Below, piece after piece: positions 2,365 through 40,561 of a DNA stretch of 64,000 nucleotides. Every line of letters begins with the position of its first letter. Position 1 is the stretch's first letter. A program made the position numbers and the translations under genes. The notes beneath the pieces are model-generated. The model was not told where the DNA came from. It worked only from the letters and a program-made list of their open reading frames with translations, and made no database searches. The stretch is from Candidatus Woesearchaeota archaeon (GTDB lineage: Archaea; Nanobdellota; Nanobdellia; Woesearchaeales; WJKL01): positions 225-64,224 of the forward strand of contig WJKL01000016.1 in the NCBI GenBank assembly GCA_014729145.1, written 5' to 3'.

Positions 2365-5300
2365 ATGAATATGGAAGCAGCTGAAACTATAAATAAATTC
2401 AAAGAATTTTTTGAAAAAGAATATGAAGCTAAATTAAAAGATAGTGTTAGAAAAGGAAAACATTATCTTGTTATTGATTTTTCTGAACTTCTTAATTTTG
2501 ACCATGAGCTTTCTGATGGTCTTTTGGACAACCCAGAAGATTCTGTTGCTGCTGCTGAAGAGGCTGTAAAGGATTGTATTGATGGTAATATTAAAAAATT
2601 CAACATAAGATTCTTAAATCTTCCTGAAAACCAAAAGGTATTGGTAAGGAACATAAGAAGCAAACATATCGGAAGGCTTTTGGTGATGGATGGTGTGGTC
2701 AGGCAGAAAAGTGATGTAAGGCCGCAAGTAACTTCTGCAAAGTTTGAATGCCCTTCCTGCGGAAATATAATCAATGTTCTTCAGCTGGACAAAACATTCA
2801 AGGAACCAAATAAATGCGGGTGCGGAAGGAAAGGAAAATTTAGATTATTGAAGAAAGAACTGGTGGATGCTCAGGGGCTGGTTTTAGAAGAAGATCCTGA
2901 AAATCTTGAAGGAGGAGAGCAGCCAAAAAGGATGAATGTGCTGCTGCAGGACGATCTTGTAAGTCCTTTAAGCGAAAGGAAGACAAACCCTGGAAGCAAG
3001 ATAAAAATAATTGGAACAATAAAGGAAGTGCCAATATTTTCAAGAACTGGGAGCCAAACAACGAGATTTGACCTTCTTATAGAAGCAAATAATTTTGAAA
3101 CAATAGAGGAGAATTTCTATGAAGTTGAAATTACTAAAGAAGAGCATGAAGAGATCAAAAAGCTTTCAAAAGATCCTAAGATATACAAGAAACTTGTACA
3201 GTCAATAGCTCCATCTATATACGGCTATAAAAAAGTAAAAGAAGCATTGATACTGCAGCTTATGGGCGGGGTGCATAAGCAAAGACATGATGGGGTTGTA
3301 ACAAGAGGAGATATGCATATTCTTTTGATTGGGGATCCGGGAAGCGGAAAATCTCAGCTATTGAAAAGGGTAAATCTTATTGCGCCAAAAGGAAGATATG
3401 TATCTGGAAAGGGTGTTTCGGGTGCAGGACTTACTGCATCTGTTGTCAAGGATGAATTTTTAAAGGGATGGAGTTTAGAAGCAGGGGCTTTGGTATTGGC
3501 GAATAATGGAATGTGCTGTTTACATCCTGATACATCTATTGTCATTAATAATAAAATACAAAAAATATCAAAAATATTTGACTGCCATAAAAAAGAATTA
3601 GGAAAATGCAAAAATGAGATTGTTGAATTTAATGATATTGAAAAAGATGTAGTAAGTTTTGATATAAAAAGAATGGATTGTGAAAAACAAGTTTCGACAG
3701 TTATTAGGAGAAAGAAATTTGATGGCCATTTATTAAATGTCAAATTCAAATCAGGATTCTCTATAAAACTTACTCCTGACCACAAGATAATCGATGGAAA
3801 TCATTTAGGGTGGAAGGAAGCTCAAGAATTCAAAAAAGGGGAAAAAACATTGGCGCCCTTAAATTTGCCAAGCATTAAAGAAGATACTTTTATATTTGAC
3901 ATCTTACCTAAAAATTGGAAAGTTTTTTTGAACAAAAAAGAAAAAAACCAATTGAAGCAAAATATAAGAAGAAAATTTAAAACATTGAGCGCTTTCAATA
4001 AAAAATTTAACTTGGATAAGAATTTTCTTTCTGGAAGAAAACAAATAACTATTAAGAAATTTGAAAAAATCTTAGAATTTTTAGGAGAAAAAAATAAATG
4101 GAGAAAAATCCCTTTAAAATTTGGAAGGAATAAAAATGGAGAAAAATTGAAAATAGCCAAAATCACTCCAGAATTAGGCTATATATTAGGATTCATATTG
4201 GGAGATGGATATATAAATATGAATAAAAGAAGAACGACAATAAATATAACTCAATCTATCAAGAACAAGGAGAATATTAAAAGAATAAAAGAATATTGGA
4301 ATAAAATTTCATTGAAAAAATTAAAAGAAACTGAAGATAATAGAACCTCTAAGATTAGGGACCAAAAGGTAATATCAAAATGTAAAGTTCTTTATTCTGG
4401 GAGCAACCTTCTTGGTGGTTTATATAAACATTATACTTCGAATGCACTTGCCGAAATATTATCCCTGCCTGATGATGTGTTAAAAGGATTTATTGGTGGG
4501 ATTATGGATTCTGATGGCTGCATAAGTACAAGAAAGTACATAAAGAATGGAAATAAATATTTTACGCAGATTATTGAATTTTTATTTAGTAATGAAAGAA
4601 AAGAAAATCTTAATTTTATGCTTGCGCTTAGGAGATTTGATTGTTATGGTAAAATAAACGAGAGAGAAAATATAAAATCAGTCACAATTAGTAGTAGAAA
4701 AGATATATCTAATTTGATTAAAGAATTAGACTCTTTTTCTATTAAAATTAGTAAATCTAGATTATTAGTTAAGAATAAGCAAATTTCAGGAGACAGTGAT
4801 AAAATACCCTCCATCATTGGAAAAAAGATATGTGATAGGATAATAAAATTAAACAAATCCTTTTTGCTTAAGAAAGGTATATGGAGTACAGTTTATGGTT
4901 TTAAACATGGTGGAAGGGAACCTTCAAGAAATCAGATAATTAAAATCATCAATAAAACACAAGATATGATAAATGATAAAAAGTTTGTTGAGGGATCATT
5001 AGGATTGATAAAAAGAGACTATTTTCTAGATGAGATTGTTGATATAAAAAAAGAAAAATATTCAGGATATGTCTATGACTTATTTGTTCCGAAAAACCAT
5101 AACTTTCTTGCAGATGGAATAATTGTACATAATTGTATTGATGAGATGGACAAGATGAGCCAGGAAGACAGGAGTGCAATGCACGAGGCGCTTGAGCAGC
5201 AAAGCTTCCATTATGATACTTGGATTAGTTTAGCAGATGGTTCTGAAAAAAAGATTGGAAACTTCGTAGAAAAATTAATGAAAAAAAACCATAAAAAAAT

Positions 5301-7413
5301 TATAAAAGGAAAAGATTGTTATATACTTCCTACAGAAGACAAAGATGTAGAAATCTTCACTACTGATTGGAATAATATTTACAAAACAAAAATCAACAGA
5401 GTGAGCAAACACATTGCTCCAGATTATTTTATTAAAATAAAATTAAAAAATGGGAGAGAGATTACAGTAACTCCAGAACATCCTGTTTTCTATATAGATG
5501 AGTGTAAGATCAAAACCGTTGATGCTGAAAATGTAAAAGAAGATATGTGGATGCCTGTGCCTTTAGAAACAAATATAGAAGGAGAAAGTCAAAAATTTGA
5601 GATAACAAAAGAAGAATGCTACATAAATAGGGCTTCTCGACATATTGCTGTTCCGATGGAGAATGGAGAAAATTTCTTCAAGATTATAGGTTATATGCTA
5701 GCAGAAGGTTCTAAAGAACTTAATAGAGGAAAATTAATTGGTATTAATTTTACTAATAAAGATGAAAGATTATTAGAAGATTTTGAAAATTCCATGGAAG
5801 AATTATTTGGGCTTAGACCCTATAAACAACCCAGAATTGATGGTTATGATTTAAGATACATGTATAGGTATATTTCGAGAGAATTAAGTGTCTTTATTGA
5901 GAGAACATGTCCTGAGATATTAAATAAATCTAGTGAAAAAGAAATTCCTAAAATTTGTTTAAAAGGGAAAAAAGAAGATGTTGCTTTAATGCTTTCATGC
6001 ATGTTTGAAGGAGATGGTCATGTATCAAAAAAACTTAGAACTATTAGGGTAGGATTTGGATCTAATAGTAAGAAAATGTGCGAACAGGTTCAAGATTTGT
6101 TATTAAGATTTGGAATAAGAAGTAATTTGACTGAACACAAAAAAAGCTATAAAGTTTCGATTACTAGAAGAGAAAACTTGCTAAAATTTTATGAAAAAAT
6201 TGGATTTATTACTAAAGAAAAAAACAATATTATAAAAAAATATTTAGACAATGTAAAATTAAAAAGAAGTATCAAGAATAATATTCCTAATGTTTCTAAA
6301 AAAGTTATAAAATTGATGAAAAAATATGGTGTTAAATGTGTAGGAAATAATTGTTTGGCTACAATGAAATATGACTATCTTAAAAGAAGAAGAAATATAT
6401 CTAAACAAGCACTACAAGAGATTGTAAAAAAGATTTCTCCAAAACCTGAAGATAAGAAAGCCCATAATTTTCTTAAAAAAATGGCTTTTGGAAATATTGG
6501 ATTTGAAAAAATAAAATCTATTGAAAGAATAGAAAATAAGGATCAAAAATGGACTTATGATGTTACCATAGAGCCAACCCATAATTTTATTTCTCAAAAT
6601 ATGGTTTTACATAACACAATCAGCATAAGCAAGGCAAATATCCAGGCCACTCTTGTAGCTAGGACAACTGTGCTGGCTGCAGCAAACCCAAAGTTTGGAA
6701 GATTTGACCCTTATGATATCTTAGCGAAACAGATAGATCTTCCACCTGCGCTGATCAACAGGTTTGACCTTATATTTCCTATAAAAGATATGCCTGATAA
6801 AGAAAAAGACAAAAAAATGGCGCATCATATATTAGACCTTCATCAAAATCCTGATGTAGATGATCCTGAAATTGAAACAGAGCTTCTTAAGAAATATTTT
6901 GCCTATGCAAGACAGAATGTAAATCCAAAGCTTACCAGCGGTGCATTGGAGGAGATCAAAAATTATTATGTTGAGATGAGAAACAAAGAAGTGGGGGAAG
7001 AAGGCTCTGCAAGAGCAATACCAATATCACCAAGACAGCTTGAGGCTTTGATAAGATTGTCTGAGGCGTCTGCGAGGACAAGATTAAGCCCAAAAGTTAC
7101 AAAGAAAGACGCAAAAAAGGCAATAAGTCTGCTCCACCACTGCTTAAGTGAGATAGGTGTTGATCCAGAGACAGGAAAGATTGATATTGACAGAATTACT
7201 ACAGGTATAACAGCATCACAAAGAAACAAGATAGTGGTAATCAAGGAGATCATAAATGAGCTTGAGAATAAGATCGGAAAAACTATCCCTCTTGATGATC
7301 TGATAAAAGAGGCTGAAGACAAAGGAATAGAAGATATAGATGATGCTATTGAAAAGCTGAAAAGAAGCGGAGATATTTTTGAGCCCAAGAGAGGATTTAT
7401 ACAAAAGATCTAA
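2365..7413 (+). CDS. mcm: MCM replicative helicase interrupted by two inteins (1682 aa precursor; about 672 aa mature)
   Basis: N-terminal MCM domain with zinc finger (CPSCGN...CGCG), Walker A GDPGSGKSQ, Walker B CIDEMDKM split by insert 1, EQQ/TISISKA split by insert 2, arginine finger region LAAANP, C-terminal winged helix. Confidence 0.9.
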   Translation: MNMEAAETINKFKEFFEKEYEAKLKDSVRKGKHYLVIDFSELLNFDHELSDGLLDNPEDSVAAAEEAVKDCIDGNIKKFNIRFLNLPENQKVLVRNIRSKHIGRLLVMDGVVRQKSDVRPQVTSAKFECPSCGNIINVLQLDKTFKEPNKCGCGRKGKFRLLKKELVDAQGLVLEEDPENLEGGEQPKRMNVLLQDDLVSPLSERKTNPGSKIKIIGTIKEVPIFSRTGSQTTRFDLLIEANNFETIEENFYEVEITKEEHEEIKKLSKDPKIYKKLVQSIAPSIYGYKKVKEALILQLMGGVHKQRHDGVVTRGDMHILLIGDPGSGKSQLLKRVNLIAPKGRYVSGKGVSGAGLTASVVKDEFLKGWSLEAGALVLANNGMCCLHPDTSIVINNKIQKISKIFDCHKKELGKCKNEIVEFNDIEKDVVSFDIKRMDCEKQVSTVIRRKKFDGHLLNVKFKSGFSIKLTPDHKIIDGNHLGWKEAQEFKKGEKTLAPLNLPSIKEDTFIFDILPKNWKVFLNKKEKNQLKQNIRRKFKTLSAFNKKFNLDKNFLSGRKQITIKKFEKILEFLGEKNKWRKIPLKFGRNKNGEKLKIAKITPELGYILGFILGDGYINMNKRRTTINITQSIKNKENIKRIKEYWNKISLKKLKETEDNRTSKIRDQKVISKCKVLYSGSNLLGGLYKHYTSNALAEILSLPDDVLKGFIGGIMDSDGCISTRKYIKNGNKYFTQIIEFLFSNERKENLNFMLALRRFDCYGKINERENIKSVTISSRKDISNLIKELDSFSIKISKSRLLVKNKQISGDSDKIPSIIGKKICDRIIKLNKSFLLKKGIWSTVYGFKHGGREPSRNQIIKIINKTQDMINDKKFVEGSLGLIKRDYFLDEIVDIKKEKYSGYVYDLFVPKNHNFLADGIIVHNCIDEMDKMSQEDRSAMHEALEQQSFHYDTWISLADGSEKKIGNFVEKLMKKNHKKIIKGKDCYILPTEDKDVEIFTTDWNNIYKTKINRVSKHIAPDYFIKIKLKNGREITVTPEHPVFYIDECKIKTVDAENVKEDMWMPVPLETNIEGESQKFEITKEECYINRASRHIAVPMENGENFFKIIGYMLAEGSKELNRGKLIGINFTNKDERLLEDFENSMEELFGLRPYKQPRIDGYDLRYMYRYISRELSVFIERTCPEILNKSSEKEIPKICLKGKKEDVALMLSCMFEGDGHVSKKLRTIRVGFGSNSKKMCEQVQDLLLRFGIRSNLTEHKKSYKVSITRRENLLKFYEKIGFITKEKNNIIKKYLDNVKLKRSIKNNIPNVSKKVIKLMKKYGVKCVGNNCLATMKYDYLKRRRNISKQALQEIVKKISPKPEDKKAHNFLKKMAFGNIGFEKIKSIERIENKDQKWTYDVTIEPTHNFISQNMVLHNTISISKANIQATLVARTTVLAAANPKFGRFDPYDILAKQIDLPPALINRFDLIFPIKDMPDKEKDKKMAHHILDLHQNPDVDDPEIETELLKKYFAYARQNVNPKLTSGALEEIKNYYVEMRNKEVGEEGSARAIPISPRQLEALIRLSEASARTRLSPKVTKKDAKKAISLLHHCLSEIGVDPETGKIDIDRITTGITASQRNKIVVIKEIINELENKIGKTIPLDDLIKEAEDKGIEDIDDAIEKLKRSGDIFEPKRGFIQKI
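3517..5133 (+). mobile_element. Intein 1 in MCM (539 aa) with LAGLIDADG homing endonuclease domain. Inserted between NNGMC and CIDEMDKM (Walker B).
   Basis: Starts with Cys (CLHPDT), ends with His-Asn (IVHN), followed by a Cys +1 extein residue. LAGLIDADG-type motifs LGYILGFILGDGYI and KGFIGGIMDSDGCIS. The host motif is restored when the insert is removed. Confidence 0.75.
5203..6615 (+). mobile_element. Intein 2 in MCM (471 aa) with LAGLIDADG homing endonuclease domain. Inserted between EQQ and TISISKA.
   Basis: Starts with Ser (SFHYDT), ends with His-Asn (VLHN), followed by a Thr +1 residue. LAGLIDADG-type blocks IIGYMLAEGS and LSCMFEGDGHVS. Removal restores the canonical MCM motif EQQTISI. 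Confidence 0.7.
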
Positions 7414-9971: not shown

Positions 9972-12900
9972 CTAACCAAACCACTTTCCAAGACCTTCCT
10001 GCCTTTCTTTTTCTTTTCCAAAAACACTTTCAATCCTTCTTTGGAGTATTGTAAGTGTCTGCTTCAGATAATCAGGGATATTATATTTGTTTGCAAGAGA
10101 TATGCTTGGCTGGAGGTATTTTACTACAGAGCCTTCTGAGATGGTGAAGATTATCCTGCCTCCGCATTCAGTGCATTTTCCTATCAAAGGGGGCCGCCTG
10201 TATTTTGTATTGCATTTTACACAACGAAACTGCTGCATTGAAAATTTCCTGAGATTTCCTTTGATGTCTCTTAGGAAATGTTTTTCTATGACCAATCTTG
10301 CGACATCAGAGGTATCTACAGCTCTTAGTTTTTCTGCTATGTTCATCTGCCCCTTTAACTTATCCTCCATAGAAGGCAAAGTCTTGTATGCAGAACATCT
10401 TACCCCTTTATTTATGTTTGAGGTGTCATGTGTAAAACCAAGACCTTCATATTGCTTTGGTGTGTTAAGGTGGTCTCCAAGTTTTGATATTTCAATGTCC
10501 CATGGATCCTTATATGCAATGCATGCATTATAGAACTCAAGAGTGTATCTCCAGGCGATATCCATGTCAAATATCATATCATCTATTTCAGAAGGGATGA
10601 GTCTTGAGGTCATTACAAGGGGTGCGTCTTGGGTTGCTCCTCTGTGTGCAGGAAGGTACTGCCTGGAAAAATTGATTACTGCATCCATCAGAAGGTTTAC
10701 TGATGCTTCATCTCCGTCGCAGTCTCTTCTTGTAGCAGCATGGAGCATGGGATGAGCAAAAAAACCTTGGGTATTTGAAAAACCGATGATTCTCCCCACT
10801 ATTGCTGCAGAAGTGTGTGGCGCTAAAGCAAGAACAAGATGGCCGATAAGGTCTTGTTCAGATTTTAAATTATAGTAAGCTGGTAAGCTGTAAAGATTTT
10901 TAAGAAGGTCATCGCAGAATTTTGAAACCCTGAACAATACTTCATCTGCTCCCTGATCTGGAGATTCCTGACATGCAGGAAGAACTATGTCCTGTGGCTT
11001 TAATTCTAGAATCTGGTCTTTTTCCCTAAGGGGTTTTCCATGAATGTCTTTTATATATCCAAGCTCGTTAAGCTTTTCTACAGAAGTTCCTATCTCTTTT
11101 GGCTTGAAATGGGTCAGAGGAAGCTGAGTCATATCATACCTTGTTGTTCCGTCTTTGTTTACGTGTATATCATTTTTTGCCCTTAATATCCCTTTTATCA
11201 GGTGTTCAGGCACATGGTCTTTGTTTGATGTCCCTCTTACTCCTTTGATCAAATCAGGGTATGCTTTAATCTTTAATTTTTTAAGCATCTGCTTGAAATA
11301 ATACTTTATGTCAATATCCTGCAGCCTGTGATGTGGTATTTCTCCATGTTTTTTGCATTTCTCTTTTTCTTTTGATCCACAGATCTTGCAGAAATATCTT
11401 TTTTCTGTTCTTTTACCACAGGTTTCGCATACACTAAAGATGGTTTCTTTACTGCATCTTTTGCAGAAGAATAGGGGGAAATTGGACCTTATCTTTCCCT
11501 CTTCAAGTGCAGCCTGGAAAGAACGCAGTCTTCCCCCTTCATTTCCAACAGGGAACAGAACATGAGGTGATCCGGTAAGTTTTCTCATCTTGGCCTTTTC
11601 AGGACGCCCCATCCTTGCGCCTATGAATACTCCTGACTTGTCCCTAATCTTAACTGAGGATATATCTTTGATAATATCTAGGGGGTTCTTGTCTATTGAA
11701 GTAATATTAGAAATATTTAACTGGGCGATAAAAGCCGGGGCGTGATCTTTTTTGATTACTATAAACTCTTTATTGACAACAATATGGGGCAGACCTATCA
11801 GTTCCAATGCCCTTTTAGTATGCTCTTCTATCGGGATTATTATTTTCTTGGTGGTATTATTTTCTTTTTTTATCTCTGATTTTTTAATTGATCTTACAAG
11901 TTCAGAAAACTGCTCCTTGTTTATAAGCTTCCAGTGGTATGTATATCTTGGATGAAGAGGGATGTTCAACTTTAGAGAAAGTTTAAGGGCGTGCTGTGGA
12001 GAAATTATGGTATTTAGTGGGTTCTTAGTCAGCTTATTGAGTATATCTTCAGGTATTTCAGTAAACTCTGAAAGCTTGTAGGTGTCAAGATTTCCAAAAT
12101 TATCAACCGTGGCTTTTTCCAGCTCCTGTATCCACCATTCCTCACAATAACCAGGAGGTATCAAAGAATGAGCACGATTGAGGAAATCCCCATAGTTTAT
12201 GAGCATATCTCCCATGAAAAGGATCTCTTCAATATTATCTGAATATTCTTTTAGTTCTGATTCATTCTCTATCTTCACAACTGAACCGTCTTTGAGTTTT
12301 ATTATAGGACCTTCAAGCGTGTCGCAGACTGTGACGGTACAGCCTTTTCCAGGCCTCTCTATCTTCAGCTGGGTTCCAGTGCCAATATAATCATTTAAGG
12401 CTGCCATGGTAGCTGGGTGGATAGATGTAGCAGAATACCCTGATGTCCTTGACCTTCCAAATCTTAACCTAAATCCGCCAGGAGCAAGCGGGTGCGTCAA
12501 AACAGGCCTTCCTGCAACAAGGTCTTTTATGAATGTATGGTCCGGCTTTACTTCATTGGTTTCTTTTTCCTCTTTTTTATCTGGTGTCTGTTTTGATTTT
12601 ATCTTTTTTTGTAGTCTTACGAATTCTTCAAGAAAATCCCACTGCTCCATACTGAATTCGTGACCCCATTTTGAAAGCTGTTTCCATAATTTAGGGGCTT
12701 TTTGGGCAATTCCCTCTCCCATAGTAAGGCAGACCCCATTTCTGATCCTGTTTGTCTCTACTCTTTCAAGGTCCTTATAATTGGAAACCTCTATCTTTTC
12801 GGAAGGGTCTCCAGCTATCTGAACAGGTATGTGTTTAGCTAAAAATTCTATCTCTTCTGGAGAGGGAAGATATTGAAGATTGGTAATCTTTTCATGATAA

Positions 12901-13496
12901 TCATAAAGTTCAGTGACATACCTTTTAGTCTCCTTTTCGTTTGGATCATAAGGGTGATATCCCATCTTTTTTCTTACATAATCTGCAATCAAAACAGAAA
13001 CTGAAGCTCCGGTGCCCCCTGCACTCCTGATTGGTCCAGAAAAATATAGTTTAAAGTATTCTTTTCCTTCTTTTGTCTTTTCTATAGATAACTTGCTGAA
13101 ACCTTCAAGAGGGGATGCGACCGAACCTAAAGTATGGTATGCGAATCCTACCCTTATTCCCACCTCCATTGCTTCTTTTTTGTCTTCGAACTTGCAGAAT
13201 TTCTGATTTGCGATCTCTTCAGCGATTATGAGTGATATTCTCCAGTCCAGAACACTGTATTTTTTTTCGAGGTCCTGTATCCTTTTTGATACTCCTGAAT
13301 CTATAATCTGAGGTGCAACTGCAGAGATAAGCCCGGTTACACGCTCAGCCATATTCCTGGCAACAGGTATATCTATCTTTTCTTCTGGATCATATCCCTT
13401 CTTTCTTGCTTTGGAAGCCAGAGAAAGCCCTTTTTTCAGTTTTTCATCTATCTTTTTGAAGTAATCTTCCATCTCTTTTGAAGTTTGTGGGCTCAT
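9972..13496 (-). CDS. dp2: DNA polymerase II (PolD) large subunit DP2
   Basis: 1174 aa. Conserved DP2 blocks including Cys clusters (CKRCSKETIFSVCETCGKRTE...CKICG) and C-terminal zinc finger (CVKCNTKYRRPPLIGKCTECGG). Start overlaps the DP1 stop (ATGA). No intein. Confidence 0.9.
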   Translation of the reverse strand: MSPQTSKEMEDYFKKIDEKLKKGLSLASKARKKGYDPEEKIDIPVARNMAERVTGLISAVAPQIIDSGVSKRIQDLEKKYSVLDWRISLIIAEEIANQKFCKFEDKKEAMEVGIRVGFAYHTLGSVASPLEGFSKLSIEKTKEGKEYFKLYFSGPIRSAGGTGASVSVLIADYVRKKMGYHPYDPNEKETKRYVTELYDYHEKITNLQYLPSPEEIEFLAKHIPVQIAGDPSEKIEVSNYKDLERVETNRIRNGVCLTMGEGIAQKAPKLWKQLSKWGHEFSMEQWDFLEEFVRLQKKIKSKQTPDKKEEKETNEVKPDHTFIKDLVAGRPVLTHPLAPGGFRLRFGRSRTSGYSATSIHPATMAALNDYIGTGTQLKIERPGKGCTVTVCDTLEGPIIKLKDGSVVKIENESELKEYSDNIEEILFMGDMLINYGDFLNRAHSLIPPGYCEEWWIQELEKATVDNFGNLDTYKLSEFTEIPEDILNKLTKNPLNTIISPQHALKLSLKLNIPLHPRYTYHWKLINKEQFSELVRSIKKSEIKKENNTTKKIIIPIEEHTKRALELIGLPHIVVNKEFIVIKKDHAPAFIAQLNISNITSIDKNPLDIIKDISSVKIRDKSGVFIGARMGRPEKAKMRKLTGSPHVLFPVGNEGGRLRSFQAALEEGKIRSNFPLFFCKRCSKETIFSVCETCGKRTEKRYFCKICGSKEKEKCKKHGEIPHHRLQDIDIKYYFKQMLKKLKIKAYPDLIKGVRGTSNKDHVPEHLIKGILRAKNDIHVNKDGTTRYDMTQLPLTHFKPKEIGTSVEKLNELGYIKDIHGKPLREKDQILELKPQDIVLPACQESPDQGADEVLFRVSKFCDDLLKNLYSLPAYYNLKSEQDLIGHLVLALAPHTSAAIVGRIIGFSNTQGFFAHPMLHAATRRDCDGDEASVNLLMDAVINFSRQYLPAHRGATQDAPLVMTSRLIPSEIDDMIFDMDIAWRYTLEFYNACIAYKDPWDIEISKLGDHLNTPKQYEGLGFTHDTSNINKGVRCSAYKTLPSMEDKLKGQMNIAEKLRAVDTSDVARLVIEKHFLRDIKGNLRKFSMQQFRCVKCNTKYRRPPLIGKCTECGGRIIFTISEGSVVKYLQPSISLANKYNIPDYLKQTLTILQRRIESVFGKEKERQEGLGKWFG

Positions 13497-15076
13497 TTTC
13501 CGAATTTAAGTAGTTTAAATTTTCTTGTCTGAAGATTTAATATTGGAACACGTGCGGGCTCAGGATTATGGCCAACTTTTTCCTGGAAAGGTGTCTTGGA
13601 CTGCCAGCATGAACCGCAGACAAGAGTTATATTTCTGTAATTTTTTATCGTAGATTTATGAATATGGCCTGTAATAAATATATCAGGAAGGGTTTCAATT
13701 ACCAAGGGGTCTTTTGATGTGTTTGGGATATAAAGGGTGGATGTATGGCTTGGAGCAAGGTGTCTTTTTTGGAGTAAAAACTGCATGATAAGGTCAGCAC
13801 GATTGTATCCTCCTTTGTTCCTGATTGAATCGATATTGGCTACAAAATAATCAAAGGAATATCCATGATATAACAATACATCAAAACCAGGAAAATCCCC
13901 TGAAGAGTGAATATTGACTGTTGATGGATTGCTGACCATAGTGACGTTAGGAAGCTCCCAGATTGAGCCTGCAAAATCTTTGTAAAGTGTGGGCTGAGGC
14001 TCTGCAATGCGCATAGCATCGTGATTTCCAGGAGATATTATTAGATTTATATGCTGAGGGATTTTTTTCAGAAGACTGGCACATTCTTCATATTGTTTTT
14101 TTATGTCTTTGATGACAAGTTCATCTTCCTGTCCAGGGTATATTCCATGGCCATCCACTAGATCTCCCACAATAAATACATATTTTGTCTTTTCCGCAAT
14201 ATTTTTCTGCTCTTGATTTCCAGTATTGCCATTGATCCAGTCTAAAAACTGGTTGAATTCCTTGCCTAAAAAATGGTCTGAACCTACATGGACGTCTGAC
14301 AAAAATACAGCATAGGCTTCTTCTGGTGCTTTTCTCAGCTCCTTGCTTAAAGGGACTTCCGGCCAGATGATATTGTTGGCAAAAACAATATTATCCCCAT
14401 TTACACCTACAACCCCAATGACCTCATCAAGAACGATGTCCTGTGCTGGATTAAAAAGCTCTGGCTTGTTGTTGTTTACATATACCTTGATGCATCCAGT
14501 AGGGTCCTCTAAAGTAAGCATAAGCCCTCCTTTGGATGTAGTTTTTTTGTCTTTCACTATCCCTATTATCGACACATTGTCTTTGTCTTGTTTGCTATTG
14601 AGTCTTGTTATTGAGGTTAAATTCCTTAAATCAGGCCTGCTTCTTAGTATTTTTTCAAGCGCCTTGTACCTCACATTAAAATAAGAAACAAAGTCCTGGA
14701 TGTCTCTTTTCTTGCTTTCTTCCTCATATGAATTTATTATCTTTATATTTTGGGACTCGGGTTTGTTATCTACATCTTCAGAGTGCAGAAAATCTACAAA
14801 CTTAAAATAAACCTCTTTATTTTTTCCTTTTTCAAAGGACACCCTTGCATTATCAAAATCAACCCAATTCATGTCAAGAGGTGCATCCTGGTCCACCATC
14901 TTTTTTACATCAGAAGTTAACATAAGAAAGTTTCTTGATTTGAGTTTCTTGAAAAGTAAAGAATAAAAATCTGAAGGCTCAAAATCATCTGTAAGCGAAT
15001 CTAGAAATCCCTGTGATAGGAATATTTCTTTCTTTAAAAAATAATTTACAATCTTCTTTTGTTTTTCAATTTCCAT
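13493..15076 (-). CDS. dp1: DNA polymerase II (PolD) small subunit DP1 (calcineurin-like phosphoesterase, 3'-5' exonuclease)
   Basis: 527 aa. Metallophosphoesterase motifs (VFLSDVHVGS, GDLVDG, GNHD, GHIH). N-terminal OB region. Confidence 0.85.
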   Translation of the reverse strand: MEIEKQKKIVNYFLKKEIFLSQGFLDSLTDDFEPSDFYSLLFKKLKSRNFLMLTSDVKKMVDQDAPLDMNWVDFDNARVSFEKGKNKEVYFKFVDFLHSEDVDNKPESQNIKIINSYEEESKKRDIQDFVSYFNVRYKALEKILRSRPDLRNLTSITRLNSKQDKDNVSIIGIVKDKKTTSKGGLMLTLEDPTGCIKVYVNNNKPELFNPAQDIVLDEVIGVVGVNGDNIVFANNIIWPEVPLSKELRKAPEEAYAVFLSDVHVGSDHFLGKEFNQFLDWINGNTGNQEQKNIAEKTKYVFIVGDLVDGHGIYPGQEDELVIKDIKKQYEECASLLKKIPQHINLIISPGNHDAMRIAEPQPTLYKDFAGSIWELPNVTMVSNPSTVNIHSSGDFPGFDVLLYHGYSFDYFVANIDSIRNKGGYNRADLIMQFLLQKRHLAPSHTSTLYIPNTSKDPLVIETLPDIFITGHIHKSTIKNYRNITLVCGSCWQSKTPFQEKVGHNPEPARVPILNLQTRKFKLLKFGK

Positions 15077-15109: not shown

Positions 15110-16321
15110 TTAAGATATATCTAATCCTTCCTCTAAAATATTTTTTATGGTCTGTTCGGATGACTCTGATATAGATAAAGTTATATCTCTTGTTCTTCCA
15201 TATCTTCCCTTTGATATTACCTTTGCATTTATTATCCCTAACATATCCAACTCTGCGATAACATCTGAGACCCTTCTTTGGGTTAGGGGCCTTATGTTAG
15301 TTTTGGAGCATATCTTTTTGTAAACTTCATATACCTCTCCTGTGAATATCTGTTTTTCTTTTTTAGAGCAAATAGAAAGGATAGAGTAAAGGATAGCCTG
15401 GTGTTGTTTTGGTTGGGTTCTTATTATATCTAAAATTCTGTCTTTTTCTATCTTTTCTTCTGCAAAATCAATATCATCTAATTCTATCTTTTCTTTGTTT
15501 TTTCTTTCTGCCAGTTCGCCTGCGACCCGCAAGAGCTCCAGGGCCCTTCTTGCATCCCCATGTTCTCTGGCTGCATAAGCGGCACATTTTTCTATCACTC
15601 CTGATTTCATTGATTTTTTTTGGAATGCTTTTTTTGCCCTCTGTCTTAAGATATCCTGTATCTGGATTGCATTATATGGGGGGAAGATTATCTCTTCTTC
15701 TGATAATGAAGATTTTACCCTTGGATCTAAATTATCTCTGAACATTAGGTCATTGGATACCCCAATTATTGATATTTGAGATTTTTGAAGCTCTGAATTT
15801 ATTCTTGTTAGGTTATATAATACTTCATCCCCTGTTTTACTTACAAGCTGGTCGATCTCATCCAAAATCAATAAAATCAAAGAATTTTCTTTTTCTATCA
15901 AATTGAATACTATCTTATATACTTCTTCTGTTGGTAGGCCTGTTGATGGGATCTCCTGTCCAAGTTCTCTAGAAATCTGAGCAACTAATCTATATTCAGT
16001 GTCTGCGATTTTTTTTAACTTACAGTTTAGATATATTGTTTTGAGAGGTATTTTTCTTTTGGTTGCTACATTTATCAGTTTGTTGGATGTAAATTTTATC
16101 GAAAGGGTCTTTCCTGTTCCTGTTTTTCCATAAATGAAAAGATTAGAAGGTTTGTCTAACTTTAAGGCTGGTGCTAAGATATCTGCTATTTCTTGTATCT
16201 GCTTATCTCTATGGGGTGTTGTTTCTGGTGTAAAGTTTGATTGAAGTGCTTTTTTGTTTGTGAATATTGATTTTTTATCTAAGAATTCTTCGAAAAATAC
16301 ATCTATATTTTTTTGATCCAT
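15110..16321 (-). CDS. orc1: Orc1/Cdc6 replication initiator
   Basis: 403 aa AAA+ protein with Walker A GKTGTGKT and Walker B LILDEID. C-terminal winged-helix domain. Starts 15 bp from ORB1. Confidence 0.9.
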   Translation of the reverse strand: MDQKNIDVFFEEFLDKKSIFTNKKALQSNFTPETTPHRDKQIQEIADILAPALKLDKPSNLFIYGKTGTGKTLSIKFTSNKLINVATKRKIPLKTIYLNCKLKKIADTEYRLVAQISRELGQEIPSTGLPTEEVYKIVFNLIEKENSLILLILDEIDQLVSKTGDEVLYNLTRINSELQKSQISIIGVSNDLMFRDNLDPRVKSSLSEEEIIFPPYNAIQIQDILRQRAKKAFQKKSMKSGVIEKCAAYAAREHGDARRALELLRVAGELAERKNKEKIELDDIDFAEEKIEKDRILDIIRTQPKQHQAILYSILSICSKKEKQIFTGEVYEVYKKICSKTNIRPLTQRRVSDVIAELDMLGIINAKVISKGRYGRTRDITLSISESSEQTIKNILEEGLDIS

Positions 16322-16335
16322 CTAAACACCCTCTA

Positions 16336-16354
16336 TTTCCAAATGAAATGGAAG
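16336..16354 (+). promoter_or_regulatory. ORB1: TTTCCAAATGAAATGGAAG (dyad TTCCA...TGGAA)
   Basis: Matches the archaeal ORB/mini-ORB core. 15 bp upstream of the orc1 start codon. Confidence 0.5.
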
Positions 16355-16375
16355 TATAAATAATTTTTTGTTTGT

Positions 16376-16403
16376 GCCCCTGACTCCTTCATTTCATTTG
16401 GAG
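16376..16403 (-). promoter_or_regulatory. ORB2 (read on minus strand): CTCCAAATGAAATGAAGGAGTCAGGGGC with downstream G-string
   Basis: Full-length ORB architecture (dyad core plus GAAATGAAGG plus GGGG). Confidence 0.55.
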
Positions 16404-16626
16404 TTTTATATTGTTGTTTTGGATGGTTTAAATTTATTTCAGTAGTTTAATATATATAATATAATAATTATTTTTTAATTTATATTTTTTATTATAATAT
16501 TTAGAGGCTTTCTTTTTATTTTTTTCTATATTGAAAATAAATATAATATAATAAATAATAATATAATAATAAAAATAATAAATAAAAAATAAAAAAGAAA
16601 ACAACAAACAAAACAAAAAAACGACA

Positions 16627-16653
16627 TTTCCACACGAAATGAAGGAGTAGGAG
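16627..16653 (+). promoter_or_regulatory. ORB3: TTTCCACACGAAATGAAGGAGTAGGAG. Inverted relative to ORB2 across the AT-rich stretch.
   Basis: Same consensus. A degenerate fourth copy (CATTTCATTT core) lies at about 16672-16693. Confidence 0.55.
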
Positions 16654-16834
16654 AATGAAAAAATCAAGAGATTGGAATACATTTCATTTAAAGTTATCAC
16701 TATATAATAATAAAAACCATTACCTTTATAAACAATATTCTCTTAATTATCCATATATCCAAAAAGAAATTGATAGGTATAAGTATATTATAATATAAAA
16801 TTAACATTAAAATAAGGATAGTGAGGGAAAAACA

Positions 16835-21060: not shown

Positions 21061-21336
21061 ATGGCACTATTAGAAGCTTTTTTGAAAAAAACAACAAAGT
21101 GCAAAAAACACAATATAAATCTCGAGTCAATTGCAGTGACAATCACAATTAAAGGAGATAAAAATAAAGTAAAGTATGGGACCAATATAGAATACTGCAG
21201 AAAATGCTATCCTGATAAAAACACAAAAACTTTTGATGAATATATGAAGCAAATAGCTGTTGGTTATATGGGTTTTTGGAATATAGAAGCTGACCCTATA
21301 GACCTTAATATAGAGATCTACGATGGAATTCTGTAA
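21061..21336 (+). CDS. Hypothetical small protein
   Basis: 91 aa ORF with promoter-like AT-rich upstream region. No recognisable motifs. Confidence 0.3.
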   Translation: MALLEAFLKKTTKCKKHNINLESIAVTITIKGDKNKVKYGTNIEYCRKCYPDKNTKTFDEYMKQIAVGYMGFWNIEADPIDLNIEIYDGIL

Positions 21337-21426: not shown

Positions 21427-22005
21427 ATGGCCAAGAAAACAAAGAAATCCAAGAAAAAAGAAAAGTCTACAAAGAGAAGAAAAAAGATCAAGGCTATTTT
21501 TTCCAGAGAAAGGATAGTAACAGAAGATAGTGGAGAGGCAAAAGAATTATACAACCAGAGCAGATATGGAAAACTGCTGGAAAGCGGAAAATTACAACTT
21601 TCTCTTTTAGAAGGACTTTATCTGCTTGAGAAGGGAAGACTGAAAATAGTTGATGGAAGAGGGAAGAAACTCGATTTTGACAGTTATTTGGGGAAAGCAA
21701 AAAGAAAAGAAAAGAATTTTTGGATAAGGTATGTTGTCTTTAAGGACATAAGAGAAAGAGGATATATAATCAAAACCGCTTTGAAGTTTGGTGCAGATTT
21801 CAGGGTCTATAACAGGGGTGTAAAACCTGGAGAAGATCATGCAAGATGGGTTGTTTATCCTGTTCATGAGACTACTTCTTTAACATGGCATGAGTTTTCA
21901 GCAAAGAATAGGGTTGCCCATTCTACAAGAAAGAAACTTATGATAGGTGTTGTTGATGATGAAGGCGACGTTACTTATTATGAGATAAAGTGGATAAGAC
22001 CCTAA
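21427..22005 (+). CDS. endA: tRNA-splicing endonuclease (EndA)
   Basis: 192 aa. Conserved C-terminal catalytic block (FGADFRVYNRG...HARWVVYPV...TWHEFSAKNRVAHSTRKKLMIGVVD). Confidence 0.8.
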   Translation: MAKKTKKSKKKEKSTKRRKKIKAIFSRERIVTEDSGEAKELYNQSRYGKLLESGKLQLSLLEGLYLLEKGRLKIVDGRGKKLDFDSYLGKAKRKEKNFWIRYVVFKDIRERGYIIKTALKFGADFRVYNRGVKPGEDHARWVVYPVHETTSLTWHEFSAKNRVAHSTRKKLMIGVVDDEGDVTYYEIKWIRP

Positions 22006-22041
22006 TATAAAAATATATAAATAACAGATTTCTTATTAGAA

Positions 22042-23193
22042 TTGATGGTTTCCCAAGACGAAATAGTAAATGTGATCAGACATAAAGGACCTTTGCTTCC
22101 ATCCACATTGGCCAAAGAGATCGGAACAAATATTTTGATAGCTTCTGCGCATTTATCTGACTTAGTGGACAAGAAAAAGGTTTTTGTCTCAAATACAAAA
22201 GTAGGGGGAAGCCCTGTTTATTATATTGAGGGCCAAAAATCAAAGCTGCAGGATTTTGCATCCAACTTGAATGAAAAAGATCAAGAAACATTAGAATTTC
22301 TAAAAAAAAATAAAGTTTTAAGGGATGATAAGCTAGACCAACTAAAAAGAGTTTCTTTGAGGAATATAAAAGATTTTGCAGTTCCTCTGCAGGTTACCAA
22401 AGGGAATGAGAAAATATTGTTTTGGAAATGGTTTTTGATATCAAATCAAGAGGCAGAATCTTTGATCAAACAAAAACTGGAATCATCTCCAGTAACAGCG
22501 AAAAAAACAGAGGAACCCAAACAACAAGATATTAGAAAAGAAAATCAAAAATCAACAGAAGAGAATAAAAAGAGTATAGAAGAAGAGAAAAAAAGAGCAG
22601 AAGAAGAGAGAAAAAAATCAGAAGAAAGAAAAGCACTCGAAGACCAGAAAAAGAAAGAAGAGGAAAAGAAAAAGGCAGAGCAGAAAAAAAAGATACAAGA
22701 AGAAAGAGAAAGAGAAAAGAAAAAATTAGAACAGGAAAAGAAGAAGATAGAGGAAGAAAGAAAAAAGATACAAGAAGAAAGAGAAAAATTACAGGAAGAG
22801 ATAAAAAAGGAAAGGCAAAGCTTATTAAAAGAGATCCAAAACAAAGATAAGGAAGGGAAAGACAAACAAAAAAAGATTGATGACCCTTTTTTAAAACAAA
22901 TAATTGAATATTTAGACAATAAAAAAATACATCTGAATGAGTATAATATAATAAGAAAGAAATCAGAGATTGATTTGGTGTTGAAGATACCTTCTGTGAT
23001 AGGGGACCTGGATTATTACTGTAAGGCAAAGAAAAAGATGAGGGTAAGCGATTCAGATCTAAGTTCAGCGATAGTAAAAGGACAGTCAAAGAAACTTCCA
23101 ATAATATTTTTAACTACAGGAAAGTTGAACAGAAAAGCAAAGAAACTGATGAATTCAGAATTCAAAGGAAGCATAGTCATCAAAAAGATATAG
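22042..23193 (+). CDS. Novel multidomain protein: two N-terminal winged-helix-like domains, a roughly 100-aa Lys/Glu-rich coiled coil, and a C-terminal Mrr-like PD-(D/E)xK nuclease domain
   Basis: N-terminal wH-like segments. Central EEKKRAEEERKK...repeats. C-terminal EIDLVLKIP...YYCKAKKK...IIFLTTGKLNRKAKKL matches the Mrr_cat pattern (D-x-D/E-L-V ... Q/YxK ... TTg.f...A). Confidence 0.45.
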   Translation: MMVSQDEIVNVIRHKGPLLPSTLAKEIGTNILIASAHLSDLVDKKKVFVSNTKVGGSPVYYIEGQKSKLQDFASNLNEKDQETLEFLKKNKVLRDDKLDQLKRVSLRNIKDFAVPLQVTKGNEKILFWKWFLISNQEAESLIKQKLESSPVTAKKTEEPKQQDIRKENQKSTEENKKSIEEEKKRAEEERKKSEERKALEDQKKKEEEKKKAEQKKKIQEEREREKKKLEQEKKKIEEERKKIQEEREKLQEEIKKERQSLLKEIQNKDKEGKDKQKKIDDPFLKQIIEYLDNKKIHLNEYNIIRKKSEIDLVLKIPSVIGDLDYYCKAKKKMRVSDSDLSSAIVKGQSKKLPIIFLTTGKLNRKAKKLMNSEFKGSIVIKKI

Positions 23194-23215: not shown

Positions 23216-24241
23216 ATGGGAACAAATCTTAAAAATCTTTTAATCATGGATGAGATATCCAGGAAAGCTCTCCAGGATAAAAAATTAGCAGTGGACAGTT
23301 TTAATGTTCTTTACCAATTCTTGAGTACAATCAGACAGAGAGACGGCAGTTTATTGAAAGATTCAAACGGGAACGTAACATCCCACCTAATAGGGCTTTT
23401 CAGCAGAACAACAAGGTTCATGAGAGATGGGCTGCAGCTCGCTTTTGTTTTTGATGGAGAACCTCCAGAATTAAAACAGAAGGAAAGGCAAAGGAGGGGC
23501 GAGATAAAGAAAAGGGCAAAGGCAAGTTACGAAAAAGCAGCAGAGAAAAAAGATATTAAAGCGATGAAGAAATATGCTTCCAGGACTTCAAAATTAACAG
23601 GAGAGATGATTGAAGAAAGCAAAGAGCTGGTCAGTGCTTTAGGTCTGCCAGTAATACAGGCGCCAAGTGAAGGAGAGGCACAGATGGCGTATATTGTAAA
23701 CAAAGAAAACCTATATGCAGGAATAAGTGAAGATTATGACAGCCTGTTGTACGGCATTCCAAGGCTGGTGAAAAATCTTACTATAAGCAGGAGAAGAAAA
23801 GTGGGAGCCAGTTATACAACAGTAAAACCAAAGGTTGTGGGAATCTCAAAAAATCTGAATGAGCTGGGTATCGATCAAGAGCAGCTGATAGTACTCGCTA
23901 TATTGGTTGGGACCGATTATAATATAGGTGGTGTGAAGGGTATAGGACCTAAGACAGCATTAAAGCTAGTAAAAGAGAATGACCATGATTTTGATAGGAT
24001 ATTCAAAGAAGCAAAATGGAAGGAACACTTTGATATTGACTGGGAAGAGATATATTATCTCATCAAAAAGATGCCGGTGAATAAAGATTATAACTTAAAA
24101 TGGGAAAGGATAAACAAAGAGAAGATATATAAATTATTAATAGATAAACATGATTTTGCAGAAGAGAGAGTAGAGAAAACAATGAAGGCGCTTGATAAGA
24201 TAGACCAAAAAAAATCACAGAAATCTTTGGCAGATTTCTGA
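23216..24241 (+). CDS. fen: Flap endonuclease FEN-1
   Basis: 341 aa. XPG-N and XPG-I domains (LAVDSFNVLYQFLSTIR..., GIPRLVKNL) and H3TH (GIGPKTALKLV). Confidence 0.9.
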   Translation: MGTNLKNLLIMDEISRKALQDKKLAVDSFNVLYQFLSTIRQRDGSLLKDSNGNVTSHLIGLFSRTTRFMRDGLQLAFVFDGEPPELKQKERQRRGEIKKRAKASYEKAAEKKDIKAMKKYASRTSKLTGEMIEESKELVSALGLPVIQAPSEGEAQMAYIVNKENLYAGISEDYDSLLYGIPRLVKNLTISRRRKVGASYTTVKPKVVGISKNLNELGIDQEQLIVLAILVGTDYNIGGVKGIGPKTALKLVKENDHDFDRIFKEAKWKEHFDIDWEEIYYLIKKMPVNKDYNLKWERINKEKIYKLLIDKHDFAEERVEKTMKALDKIDQKKSQKSLADF

Positions 24242-38548: not shown

Positions 38549-40561
38549 TTAGGCTATGCCTGGACTTACCAGGTCTATCTTTTTTTGCTTGGTGTATTTA
38601 TAGGTATAAGTCATTTCTGACTTAAACTCTATTGGATAATCTTCAAAATCCTTAATATTCTTCAATTCTTCAGGAACAATCAAATCACAAGTTAAGCGAG
38701 GAGGTTTGTCTGTTCCCTCCCATATTATATTATTATCTTGGGTTATTATGTATCCTTCTTTTTCACAGTTGCCTGAAGGAATTATTCCATATTCTCTTAA
38801 GTCTATAAGAACTTTTTTTATAGATAAAAGCTCGCCTCCTTTCTCCTTTTTGAGGTCTTCATATTTTCCAGTAAAAGTCAATGTAGCTTTATCATAGATA
38901 AGCTTATCTGCCCCTATCCTGAAAGTATAAACTGCAAATTCATCCCCAGTTATAGATGCTTTGCTTTCCCTTGGTGAAGAATCAGTTGCCTGCTGAACTT
39001 CTTGTTTTTCTCTGCTGTCCATCCATATATTTTCTCCTACAAATATTCTCTCCAATACTGCTGTGGTTGTGATGTCTTCAGCTGTTACCTCAAATACAGC
39101 AGTAACACTTCTCTGTTCAGGATAAGGAAGGTCAGGAGCACAATATACCAGATCCTTGTCCTTTCCTTTTACTGTGATCTCTCTAGCTCTGGAAGGATTT
39201 ATTATTCCAGGAATTTTATTCTCATCAGAGGTTTTAAACAAACAAGATAGTTTAATATTTACTGGATTATTTATGGGGGATTCTAAGATAACATTCATAG
39301 GTATCCCTTCTCTACTGTTTGATGGAATATCACTATACCATGCAGCATCTGTAAGTTCTTCAAATCTAATATTGGTGGCAGTATATTCTTCTTTTATCTC
39401 CACTTCCACCCCTTTTCCAAGCGCTTTATTTATACACTCTTCGCGTTCTTCTGTTTCTGCTTCATATTCCGAGCATACTCTTTCTGCATTTCTTTGATTT
39501 AGACATTCATCGTAATTTTCCTGGCGGGAACAATAAACAGGATCCATCAAAGACCCCCAGGTATCACCAATATTTTTTAAGGATCCGGCAATAAATCCTT
39601 TGGCTTCTTCTACCTGTTCAGGTTCAAGGCCTGCTTCAATCCTTCCAAGCTGCACTGCTCCGTTCCAGAATGCAAAGACATTTATTATAATAATAAAAAA
39701 AGTCATCACATTCATCCATGTGGGCTTTTCTTTTGTGGTTATTATTATCGCATATATCCAGATGGGAATTATCAGCCTGTTGGAGATGATGGGATTATTT
39801 ACATAATTTGCCAGAATTCCAAATCCAAAAAAATCTATAAACAAAAGAATGGAAGCTATAAAATTTGCAGTTGTCTTGTCTCCTGAAACAGGGTACAAAT
39901 AAAAAACATAAAAAGATATGGCAAATAGGAGGTGAATTATACTTCCTGAATCAACTCCACCTAATGTTATTATCAGACTTCCTACTTCAAGCAAAAGGAA
40001 GAAAGACAAGAATTCTTTTTTGTTGGGTTTTTTCAATACAAGATATGCTATCGCCAATACCAGTACAACCCCATTTAAAAAAAGTCTTGCCATGTTTTCA
40101 GGGCTGAGCTGCACGAATCTTGACAAAAATAATCCAACATCTATCCCATTAAATCTTGTTAAAAATAAATCTAACAAGTATAAAACAATAGCCAGAATAA
40201 ACCACATTCCTGCTCCGCCAGTTGGTTTACTGCTTGTTTTTCGTTTTCCCTTTTTTAATGTGCCAAAGGCAGCACCTCCTGCAGATAATGCTCCTGTGCC
40301 AGCCAATTTTAAACCTTTTCCAGCAAGTTTTGCGCCTTTTTTTAATCCTGGTTTAACATCATAAGTGGCCGCACGCCCTGTAGCAGACAATCCTTTTTTT
40401 CCTGTTTCTACTGGGTGTCTTACTGCTTTAGTTCCTTTTTTTATTCCTTTCCAAGCACCTTTTCCCCCTTTTGTAAAAGTAGGGAATACTTTAGCTAATT
40501 TTTCTTTTAATCCTTTTTCAGTAAGTTCTTCTTCTACCTCTTTTTTATCATCTTCAGCCAT
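38549..40561 (-). CDS. Large polytopic membrane protein. Lys/Gly-rich cytoplasmic N-terminus, about 7 TM helices, roughly 330-aa C-terminal extracytoplasmic domain.
   Basis: 670 aa. N-terminal low-complexity KGxK/AGxG repeats. Hydrophobic core from about 120-300 aa. Cys-containing C-terminal domain. 4 bp upstream of paralog 1. Confidence 0.45.
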   Translation of the reverse strand: MAEDDKKEVEEELTEKGLKEKLAKVFPTFTKGGKGAWKGIKKGTKAVRHPVETGKKGLSATGRAATYDVKPGLKKGAKLAGKGLKLAGTGALSAGGAAFGTLKKGKRKTSSKPTGGAGMWFILAIVLYLLDLFLTRFNGIDVGLFLSRFVQLSPENMARLFLNGVVLVLAIAYLVLKKPNKKEFLSFFLLLEVGSLIITLGGVDSGSIIHLLFAISFYVFYLYPVSGDKTTANFIASILLFIDFFGFGILANYVNNPIISNRLIIPIWIYAIIITTKEKPTWMNVMTFFIIIINVFAFWNGAVQLGRIEAGLEPEQVEEAKGFIAGSLKNIGDTWGSLMDPVYCSRQENYDECLNQRNAERVCSEYEAETEEREECINKALGKGVEVEIKEEYTATNIRFEELTDAAWYSDIPSNSREGIPMNVILESPINNPVNIKLSCLFKTSDENKIPGIINPSRAREITVKGKDKDLVYCAPDLPYPEQRSVTAVFEVTAEDITTTAVLERIFVGENIWMDSREKQEVQQATDSSPRESKASITGDEFAVYTFRIGADKLIYDKATLTFTGKYEDLKKEKGGELLSIKKVLIDLREYGIIPSGNCEKEGYIITQDNNIIWEGTDKPPRLTCDLIVPEELKNIKDFEDYPIEFKSEMTYTYKYTKQKKIDLVSPGIA

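Follow-up and report, generated by a model that had tools for sequence, protein, structure and literature searches.

DPANN archaea have very small genomes, and a good part of their information-processing machinery has been inferred by homology alone. The window analyzed here is a 64,000-nt stretch from a Candidatus Woesearchaeota archaeon (contig WJKL01000016.1, positions 225 to 64,224 of the forward strand), and the gene under study, here called X, encodes a protein (protein X) with tandem winged helices, a charged linker and an Mrr-like C-terminal domain. The 383-aa open reading frame (ORF) at 22042–23193 on the + strand was found as listed, and all the peptides that an earlier note on this DNA had quoted from it occur in its translation. 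As listed, the ORF begins at TTG 22042, one codon upstream of an ATG at 22045. Alignments with homologues begin at the Met equivalent to residue 2 of the ORF, and the true start is probably the ATG rather than the TTG, giving a coding sequence at 22045–23193 (+) of 382 aa that ends with the stop codon TAG at 23191–23193 (residue numbers below are those of the 383-aa frame). This start is favored because a TATATAAA box lies 31 nt upstream of it, in agreement with the homologous loci, where a TATA-like octamer (≤2 mismatches) was present upstream of X in 75 of 83 cases and began at −31 or −30 from the ATG in 59. In the window, the promoter spans 22007–22021 (+) and consists of an A-rich stretch resembling a B recognition element (BRE; 22007–22013) followed by the TATA box TATATAAA at 22014–22021; positions −36 to −33 were likewise A-rich across the 83 loci. 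Judged by this conservation, X has its own BRE/TATA promoter, and the distance between promoter and ATG leads to the prediction that its mRNA is probably leaderless or near-leaderless.

Searches of Pfam, NCBIfam and the PDB with the single X sequence returned only low-complexity noise from its Lys/Glu stretch. The family was delimited by an exhaustive HMMER search, in which a six-sequence full-length profile was run against 1.84 billion representative sequences; its size is taken from this search because the word-index protein searches badly under-reported members. The exhaustive search gave 1717 representatives (clusters at 50% identity) at E≤1e-3, of which 1191 had E<1e-30, and the best 150 matches all had the full-length architecture of N- and C-terminal domains (284–582 aa). 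As judged from these 1717 matches, X is a real conserved gene of a large, unannotated DPANN family, not a chance ORF. Most members from the exhaustive search are 290–400 aa long, whereas the word-index searches returned only members of ≤269 aa (≤265 aa with the N-domain profile) and very few relatives of the C-domain, a single one when the X C-domain was used alone; the low-complexity linker is perhaps the reason why full-length members are missed. The 42 relatives found by word-index search with the N-terminal 155 aa of X were unnamed or “hypothetical protein” entries from Woesearchaeota/Nanoarchaeota assemblies, and exact look-ups of family members gave “hypothetical protein” only, from Candidatus Nanoarchaeia or Woesearchaeota. 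A search with one strict 10-residue pattern placed relatives in 175 species-level genomes, which carry the names Woesearchaeota, Nanoarchaeota, Nanoarchaeia or Nanobdellati; some third-party bins with relatives are labeled “uncultured Methanosarcinales”, which we read as placeholder names. X was single-copy in all of 80 loci, each of them from a different species-level genome among these 175. Literature searches on the family found nothing, and an archaeal “dark matter” survey (PMC6393860) does not mention it. The suggestion in the earlier note that this is not a described family was thus borne out, every source giving “hypothetical protein” and the N-domain having no Pfam model. No informative domain fusions were found in the family, and the N-terminal extension of its longest member (P0173, 582 aa), which contains no Pfam domain, is probably the result of a mis-called start.

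The N-terminus was correctly recognized in the earlier note as a tandem winged helix, as shown by structure matches and by the AlphaFold model of a short-linker homologue, P0038 (mean predicted local distance difference test score, pLDDT, 81.8), in which two helix-helix-helix-strand-strand winged helices are followed by a capping helix. Winged helix 1 (22051–22224, +; residues ~4–61) carries a near-invariant GPxLP motif, together with A36 and L38 in helix 3 and the wing K53-x-G-G-S-P-x-Y60-Y61. Winged helix 2 and the capping helix (22273–22479, +; residues ~78–131 and 135–146) include the conserved residues R103, R107, K110 and D111-F-A in the recognition helix and F127-W-K-W-Y in the wing strand. 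The N-domain is basic, with a net charge of +4. In Foldseek comparisons, the tandem arrangement most resembled PyrSV_gp04 of a Pyrobaculum virus (PDB 2vxz; E 4e-4 over 149 columns), a tandem winged-helix protein of unknown function that matches at only 14% identity and has no nuclease-fold domain. The best winged-helix matches also include regulators of MarR, ArsR and Lrs14 type and TrmBL2. At the profile level, the N-domain gave only weak matches to Zalpha, eS25 and MarR-type winged helices in the PDB and Pfam, and no N-domain of the family had a convincing Pfam family match. A Zalpha (Z-DNA/Z-RNA-binding) identity was rejected since the helix-3 Asn and Tyr are missing. Similarity to Mrr_N was absent among 28 N-domains searched against Pfam at E≤1, and hhalign of the N-domain profile with E. 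coli Mrr aligned nothing in the N-terminal part of Mrr.

The two domains are joined by a charged linker (22480–22881, +; residues 147–280) whose core, at 22567–22851 (+; residues 176–270), is a Lys/Glu helix of ER/K type encoded by purine-rich repeats with a 21-nt period. This segment had been described as a Lys/Glu coiled coil; it is indeed highly charged (81% E/K/R/D/Q in the core), but its sequence is not that of a coiled coil and no conserved heptad was found. Only 14 of 130 linker residues are hydrophobic, the mean best occupancy of the a/d positions is 0.28, and only residues ~229–265 have about one hydrophobic residue per heptad. Opposite-charge pairs are most frequent at i+3 (41) and i+4 (39), compared with 20–25 at i+1, i+2 and i+5 and 7 at i+7. 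The linker of this protein, though not that of the family as a whole, accordingly has the features by which ER/K single α-helices are recognized (more than about 75% E/K/R, i→i+4 opposite-charge pairing and few hydrophobic residues); it shares with known ER/K spacers the charge pattern and the near absence of a/d hydrophobics and differs from them in lacking conservation across its family. Among 152 family members, linker length ranged from 26 to 188 aa (median 92), net charge from −18 to +17, and 109 linkers contained at least 5% Pro; in the P0038 model the linker is disordered (pLDDT 28–54). Because both length and composition vary among homologues, a conserved dimerizing coiled coil is not supported by these alignments, and the linker is best described as a variable spacer. 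Most homologues having shorter or Pro-rich linkers, the Lys/Glu helix is a local repeat expansion with the 21-nt period noted above. Two antisense ORFs inside X, at 22532–23101 (− strand, 189 aa) and 22545–22919 (−, 124 aa), are rich in Phe, Leu and Ser; they were rejected as genes and regarded as by-products of the purine-rich Lys/Glu-coding repeat.

The C-terminal domain (22882–23190, +; residues 281–383; net charge about +6) is a restriction-endonuclease-fold domain resembling Mrr_cat. In the P0038 model it is arranged α-β-β-β-α-β-α-β and so contains the α-β-β-β-α-β core that characterizes the PD-(D/E)xK fold. Protein X itself did not match Pfam Mrr_cat (PF04471) at E≤10, and a C-domain profile found nothing meaningful among PDB sequences. 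When 35 C-domains of the family were searched, 11 matched Mrr_cat at E≤1 (best E 1.5e-6) and eight matched NA-iREase1 (PF22722, an “inactive REase” family; best E 1.4e-4, below any curated threshold). An hhalign comparison of the family with E. coli Mrr gave E 0.085 with the expected register, in which D311 (22972–22974, +) corresponds to Mrr D203, K328 (23023–23025, +) to Mrr Q217 and MspJI Q355, and K330 (23029–23031, +) to Mrr K219. In sequence and structure alike, the C-domain was nearer to Mrr-type nucleases than to EndA-type domains.

As regards catalysis, Mrr homologues carry the motif (D/E)...(D/E/Q)xK with a conserved (Q/E)AK, and in MspJI the substitutions D334A and Q355A each abolish activity (PMC2938202). 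In X, the Mrr motif D...(Q/E)xK reads D311...K328-A-K330, which does not fit this pattern. Of the Mrr-like domain proposed in the earlier note, the fold was therefore upheld, but the PD-(D/E)xK motif is incomplete, YYC-K328-A-K330 having Lys at the (D/E/Q) position. Loss of the D/E/K triad, which that note had named as evidence against its own proposal, was observed in part: position 328 was basic in 138 of 152 members (K in 120, R in 18) and D311 was lost in some. Position 311 was D in 98 members, E in 42 and non-acidic in 12, and position 330 was K in 129 and R in 21. The changes at 311 and 328 were associated, position 328 being non-basic in 7 of the 12 members with a non-acidic residue 311 vs 7 of the 140 others (Fisher p=6.8e-6). 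Two word-index protein searches yielded 18 distinct C-domains, a set in which that of X is counted; 11 of the 18 lacked the Asp, with residue pairs such as N-Y, S-V, G-I and V-Y at the two positions. In one member, P0252, the second winged helix was missing too, as were E309 and K330. From the DSSP strand limits and hairpin register of the model, we infer that residues 311 and 328, and likewise 309 and 330, are cross-strand neighbors. The helix-1 Glu of Mrr (“FE”) is replaced at X position 284 by a hydrophobic residue (L/F/Y; aligned by eye). On these alignments the canonical Mrr site of the family is not intact and is partly dispensable. Canonical nuclease chemistry in X appears unlikely because the motif is D...KxK and because its Asp and first Lys co-vary and vanish together in divergent members. 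In its canonical form, the structure-specific or modification-dependent nuclease suggested in the earlier note seems less likely than a non-catalytic role.

The genes placed on either side of X in that note were both confirmed by Pfam. Upstream lies the tRNA-splicing (tRNA-intron) endonuclease EndA (21427–22005, +; tRNA_int_endo_N and tRNA_int_endo) and downstream, 22 nt after the X stop codon, FEN1 (23216–24241, +; XPG_N and XPG_I). When the neighboring genes of the window were compared by tblastn with 84 homologous loci, most showed the block TFE(−) Hjc(−) RNase Z(−) / EndA(+) X(+) FEN1(+) (EamA+) Trm5(+) / PAN(−). EndA was within 300 nt upstream of X in 50 of 71 loci with enough flanking sequence and anywhere upstream in 61 of the 71, and FEN1 was within 400 nt downstream in 59 of 70 loci and anywhere downstream in 67 of the 70. 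Across 66 loci, a median of 1 nt separated the X stop codon from the FEN1 ATG, the usual sequence being “TAAaATG”; this spacing indicates that X and FEN1 are co-transcribed and translationally coupled. EndA, by comparison, would belong to a separate transcription unit, since the X promoter directly follows the EndA stop codon. The EndA of the window aligned over its full length with the α4 enzyme of M. jannaschii and retained the catalytic Y/H/K residues and the acidic L10 loop, and for these reasons seems to need no structural partner; a role of X as the structural subunit of a heteromeric splicing endonuclease (crenarchaeal β, NEQ261 or Sen15-like) was set aside. In divergent subclades with short linkers FEN1 was not adjacent to X, whereas EndA was still near it, in the arrangements EndA-X-S17e-Alba and EndA-[DUF2238]-X-PLD. 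In the window and in one homologous locus (L086), the block lies within a few kilobases of Cdc6 and the two PolD subunits, and in the window an intein-containing MCM gene is also close by. PADLOC gave no defense-family match, and the fixed position of X within the core-gene block in most of the 84 loci is not the genomic behavior of a defense gene. Judged from gene order, then, the context of X is housekeeping and not defense. A 91-aa ORF at 21061–21336 (+), between RNase Z and EndA, had no Pfam match; in another locus (L004), a gene of equal length (91 aa), likewise unannotated, is found at the corresponding place ahead of EndA.

The reading that we favor, tentatively and at a little under even confidence, is that X is a domesticated nucleic-acid-binding factor of Mrr architecture that is co-expressed with FEN1. 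The X family would then be a housekeeping family specific to the Nanoarchaeia lineage (Woesearchaeota and relatives) that has kept the general plan of Mrr-type proteins, a nucleic-acid-binding module (here a tandem winged helix) and an Mrr_cat-fold domain separated by a charged spacer of variable length. The active site would have turned from D...(Q/E)xK into D...(K/R)xK, with the Asp and the new Lys forming a cross-strand ion pair that can be lost as a unit, and it is because of this change that the C-domain is proposed to have lost cutting by the canonical mechanism. It may instead serve as a basic, probably self-associating nucleic-acid-binding module, which would make X a two-headed binder of DNA (or structured RNA) with a spacer setting the reach between the heads. 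X leads an X-FEN1 transcription unit under a strong promoter of its own, and its most likely role would be to assist, as an accessory factor or adaptor, in the processing of flaps or branched DNA during replication and repair. The gene and its folds, the size and taxonomy of the family, the motif changes with their co-variation, the promoter and the gene neighborhood are observed; loss of catalysis, nucleic-acid binding, self-association and a functional partnership with FEN1 are what we infer here for the protein. A more far-reaching version, possible but doubtful, is that an Mrr-type restriction enzyme was domesticated, early in the history of Nanoarchaeia, as a core factor of replication and repair sharing one mRNA with FEN1. 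It might be a two-headed clamp or adaptor, keeping flaps or branched DNA in place for FEN1, or else a nuclease whose rebuilt site (E309/K330/D337/D339) takes care of a step like that of Dna2 or NucS, which these reduced genomes may otherwise lack. In this version, the persistence of EndA beside X would also allow X to serve both structure-specific nucleases, EndA and FEN1.

Several observations weigh against the favored interpretation. E309 (22966–22968, +; strand 2), K330, D337 (23050–23052, +) and D339 (23056–23058, +) are near-invariant in the C-domain, being acidic in 151, basic in 150, acidic in 150 and acidic in 152 of the 152 members, respectively, and could form a rebuilt active site, which makes the loss of catalysis a matter of interpretation. 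The retention of EndA next to X in divergent subclades where FEN1 is not adjacent speaks for RNA processing no less than for a role on DNA. No PIP (PCNA-interacting protein) box or other known docking motif is conserved in the family. The conserved block holds genes of mixed function, and part of the adjacency may be due to synteny inherited within one class. The first of these points leads to an alternative that we consider somewhat unlikely, namely that X is an active, non-canonical structure-specific nuclease cutting flaps, forks or junctions alongside FEN1. Its rebuilt site would combine E309 from strand 2, K330 from strand 3 and, where the next helix begins, D337/D339; recruitment of an acid from the helix after strand 3 is seen in enzymes of the Cfr10I/NgoMIV type and in the ERKx3D motif of XPF/Mus81. 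The near-invariance of these four residues extends even to members without D311 and K328, and the predicted translational coupling of X to FEN1, with Hjc nearby, would suit such an enzyme. However, some members do without the Asp equivalent to that of Mrr, a cationic Lys or Arg facing this Asp stands at the Q/E position, the helix-1 Glu has given way to a hydrophobic residue at position 284 (by eye), P0252 has lost E309 and K330 as well, and 8 of 35 members match the “inactive REase” family of Pfam.

The persistence of EndA, the sole neighbor kept in all three local contexts (EndA-X-FEN1, EndA-X-S17e-Alba and EndA-[DUF2238]-X-PLD), together with the tRNA enzymes RNase Z and Trm5 elsewhere in the block, would fit X as an RNA-processing accessory of the tRNA-splicing endonuclease, its winged helices binding pre-tRNA or structured RNA and its inactive C-domain docking onto EndA or acting beside it. 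We regard this as unlikely, since X has its own promoter right after the EndA stop codon, the full-length, α4-like EndA does not call for a structural partner and the C-domain is closer to Mrr-type nucleases than to EndA-type domains. The winged-helix matches to MarR/ArsR/Lrs14-type regulators and TrmBL2, the basic character of both the N- and C-domains and the strong consensus promoter could be accommodated by a winged-helix transcription regulator or chromatin-type protein in which the endonuclease-fold domain serves for oligomerization only; this appears quite unlikely, given that inspection by eye found no conserved operator-like palindrome near the promoter beyond the BRE/TATA elements and that tight translational coupling to FEN1 would be unusual for a regulator. 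It is very improbable that X is a genuine Type IV (modification-dependent) restriction enzyme, an Mrr-family member with a role in defense: (Q/E)xK reads KxK and the Asp is lost in many members, neither Mrr_N similarity nor a PADLOC match was found, and the gene is single-copy in the 80 loci noted above and fixed in place among core replication and tRNA genes, unlike the mobile and patchily distributed genes of defense systems.

Compared with known systems, the combination of domains in X is less exceptional than the earlier note had supposed, since Mrr enzymes in general are built from an N-terminal DNA-recognition domain followed by the Mrr catalytic domain at the C-terminus (PMC2938202). 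X resembles Mrr, MspJI and AspBHI in having two modules, N-terminal DNA recognition and a C-terminal PD-(D/E)xK fold, with sequence similarity detectable for part of the family, and its “TTG.LT.KA” motif after strand 4 aligns with “TTSGFTSQA” in Mrr. It differs from them in its tandem winged helices, which are unlike Mrr_N and SRA-like domains, in having (K/R)AK with an Asp that is not universal in place of (Q/E)AK, and in its long, variable charged linker and its position in a core-gene operon with FEN1 as opposed to a defense island. With NA-iREase1 (PF22722), a predicted inactive domain found on NACHT NTPases, the X C-domain shares a restriction-endonuclease fold with eroded catalytic residues; in contrast, no NACHT or other NTPase domain was present in 150 full-length X-family members, and there was no conflict-system context. 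NucS/EndoMS, an archaeal endonuclease acting on mismatched and branched DNA, has a different N-terminal domain, an intact D-ExK motif and a PCNA-binding motif, whereas X has tandem winged helices, KxK and no PIP box. A parallel in evolutionary pattern is offered by the MNT-HEPN fusion of DPANN archaea (cls.004259; Makarova et al. 2019), a conflict-type module that is unusually conserved and found in a housekeeping context (PMC6393860); the analogy goes no further than the pattern, the folds being unrelated and the functions presumably so.

Both folds and the two-module plan were already known, and the unusual part is the housekeeping context. New here are the family itself, the N-terminal tandem winged-helix domain for which no profile exists, the KxK variant of the Mrr site with its co-varying loss and the core-gene operon with FEN1. 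Because it is widespread, strongly conserved, preceded by a consensus promoter and coupled to FEN1, X is a good candidate replication/repair (or RNA-processing) factor, specific to the Woesearchaeota/Nanoarchaeia lineage. If the favored reading is true, it would provide a clear case of a defense-type nuclease scaffold recruited to housekeeping, in which the erosion of the active site can be traced. The family that X defines (about 1700 clusters at 50% identity) lacks annotation, and both it and the new tandem winged-helix domain deserve a family model.

Further observations were made elsewhere in the window and on related contigs. No tRNA gene (ARAGORN) and no Rfam family at gathering score were found in the whole 64 kb, despite the genes for RNase Z, EndA and Trm5, and a 670-aa ORF at 38549–40561 (−) had no Pfam match at E≤1e-5. 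The genes for PolD DP2 (9972–13496), PolD DP1 (13493–15076) and Cdc6/Orc1 (15110–16321) form a tight, co-directional cluster on the − strand, which recurs ahead of the X block in locus L086. The region beside cdc6/orc1, at 16322–16834, is a likely replication origin. It contains elements resembling origin recognition boxes (ORB) in inverted orientation, TCCAAATGAAATGGAAG at 16338–16354, CATTTCATTTGGAG at 16390–16403, CATTTCCACACGAAATGAAGGAG at 16626–16648 and CATTTCATTTAAAG at 16680–16693; these flank a stretch of ~160 nt of almost pure A+T (16440–16600) that could be an unwinding element. The MCM helicase gene (2365–7413, +; 1682 aa) contains two Intein_splicing stretches and one LAGLIDADG_3 homing-endonuclease stretch, with intein sequence in or beside the P-loop domain, which suggests the presence of two inteins. 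An intein was also observed in a TFIIB/TFB gene on a related contig (L088, 94–2562), the 822-aa product of which is composed of Zn_Ribbon_TF, Intein_splicing and TFIIB domains.

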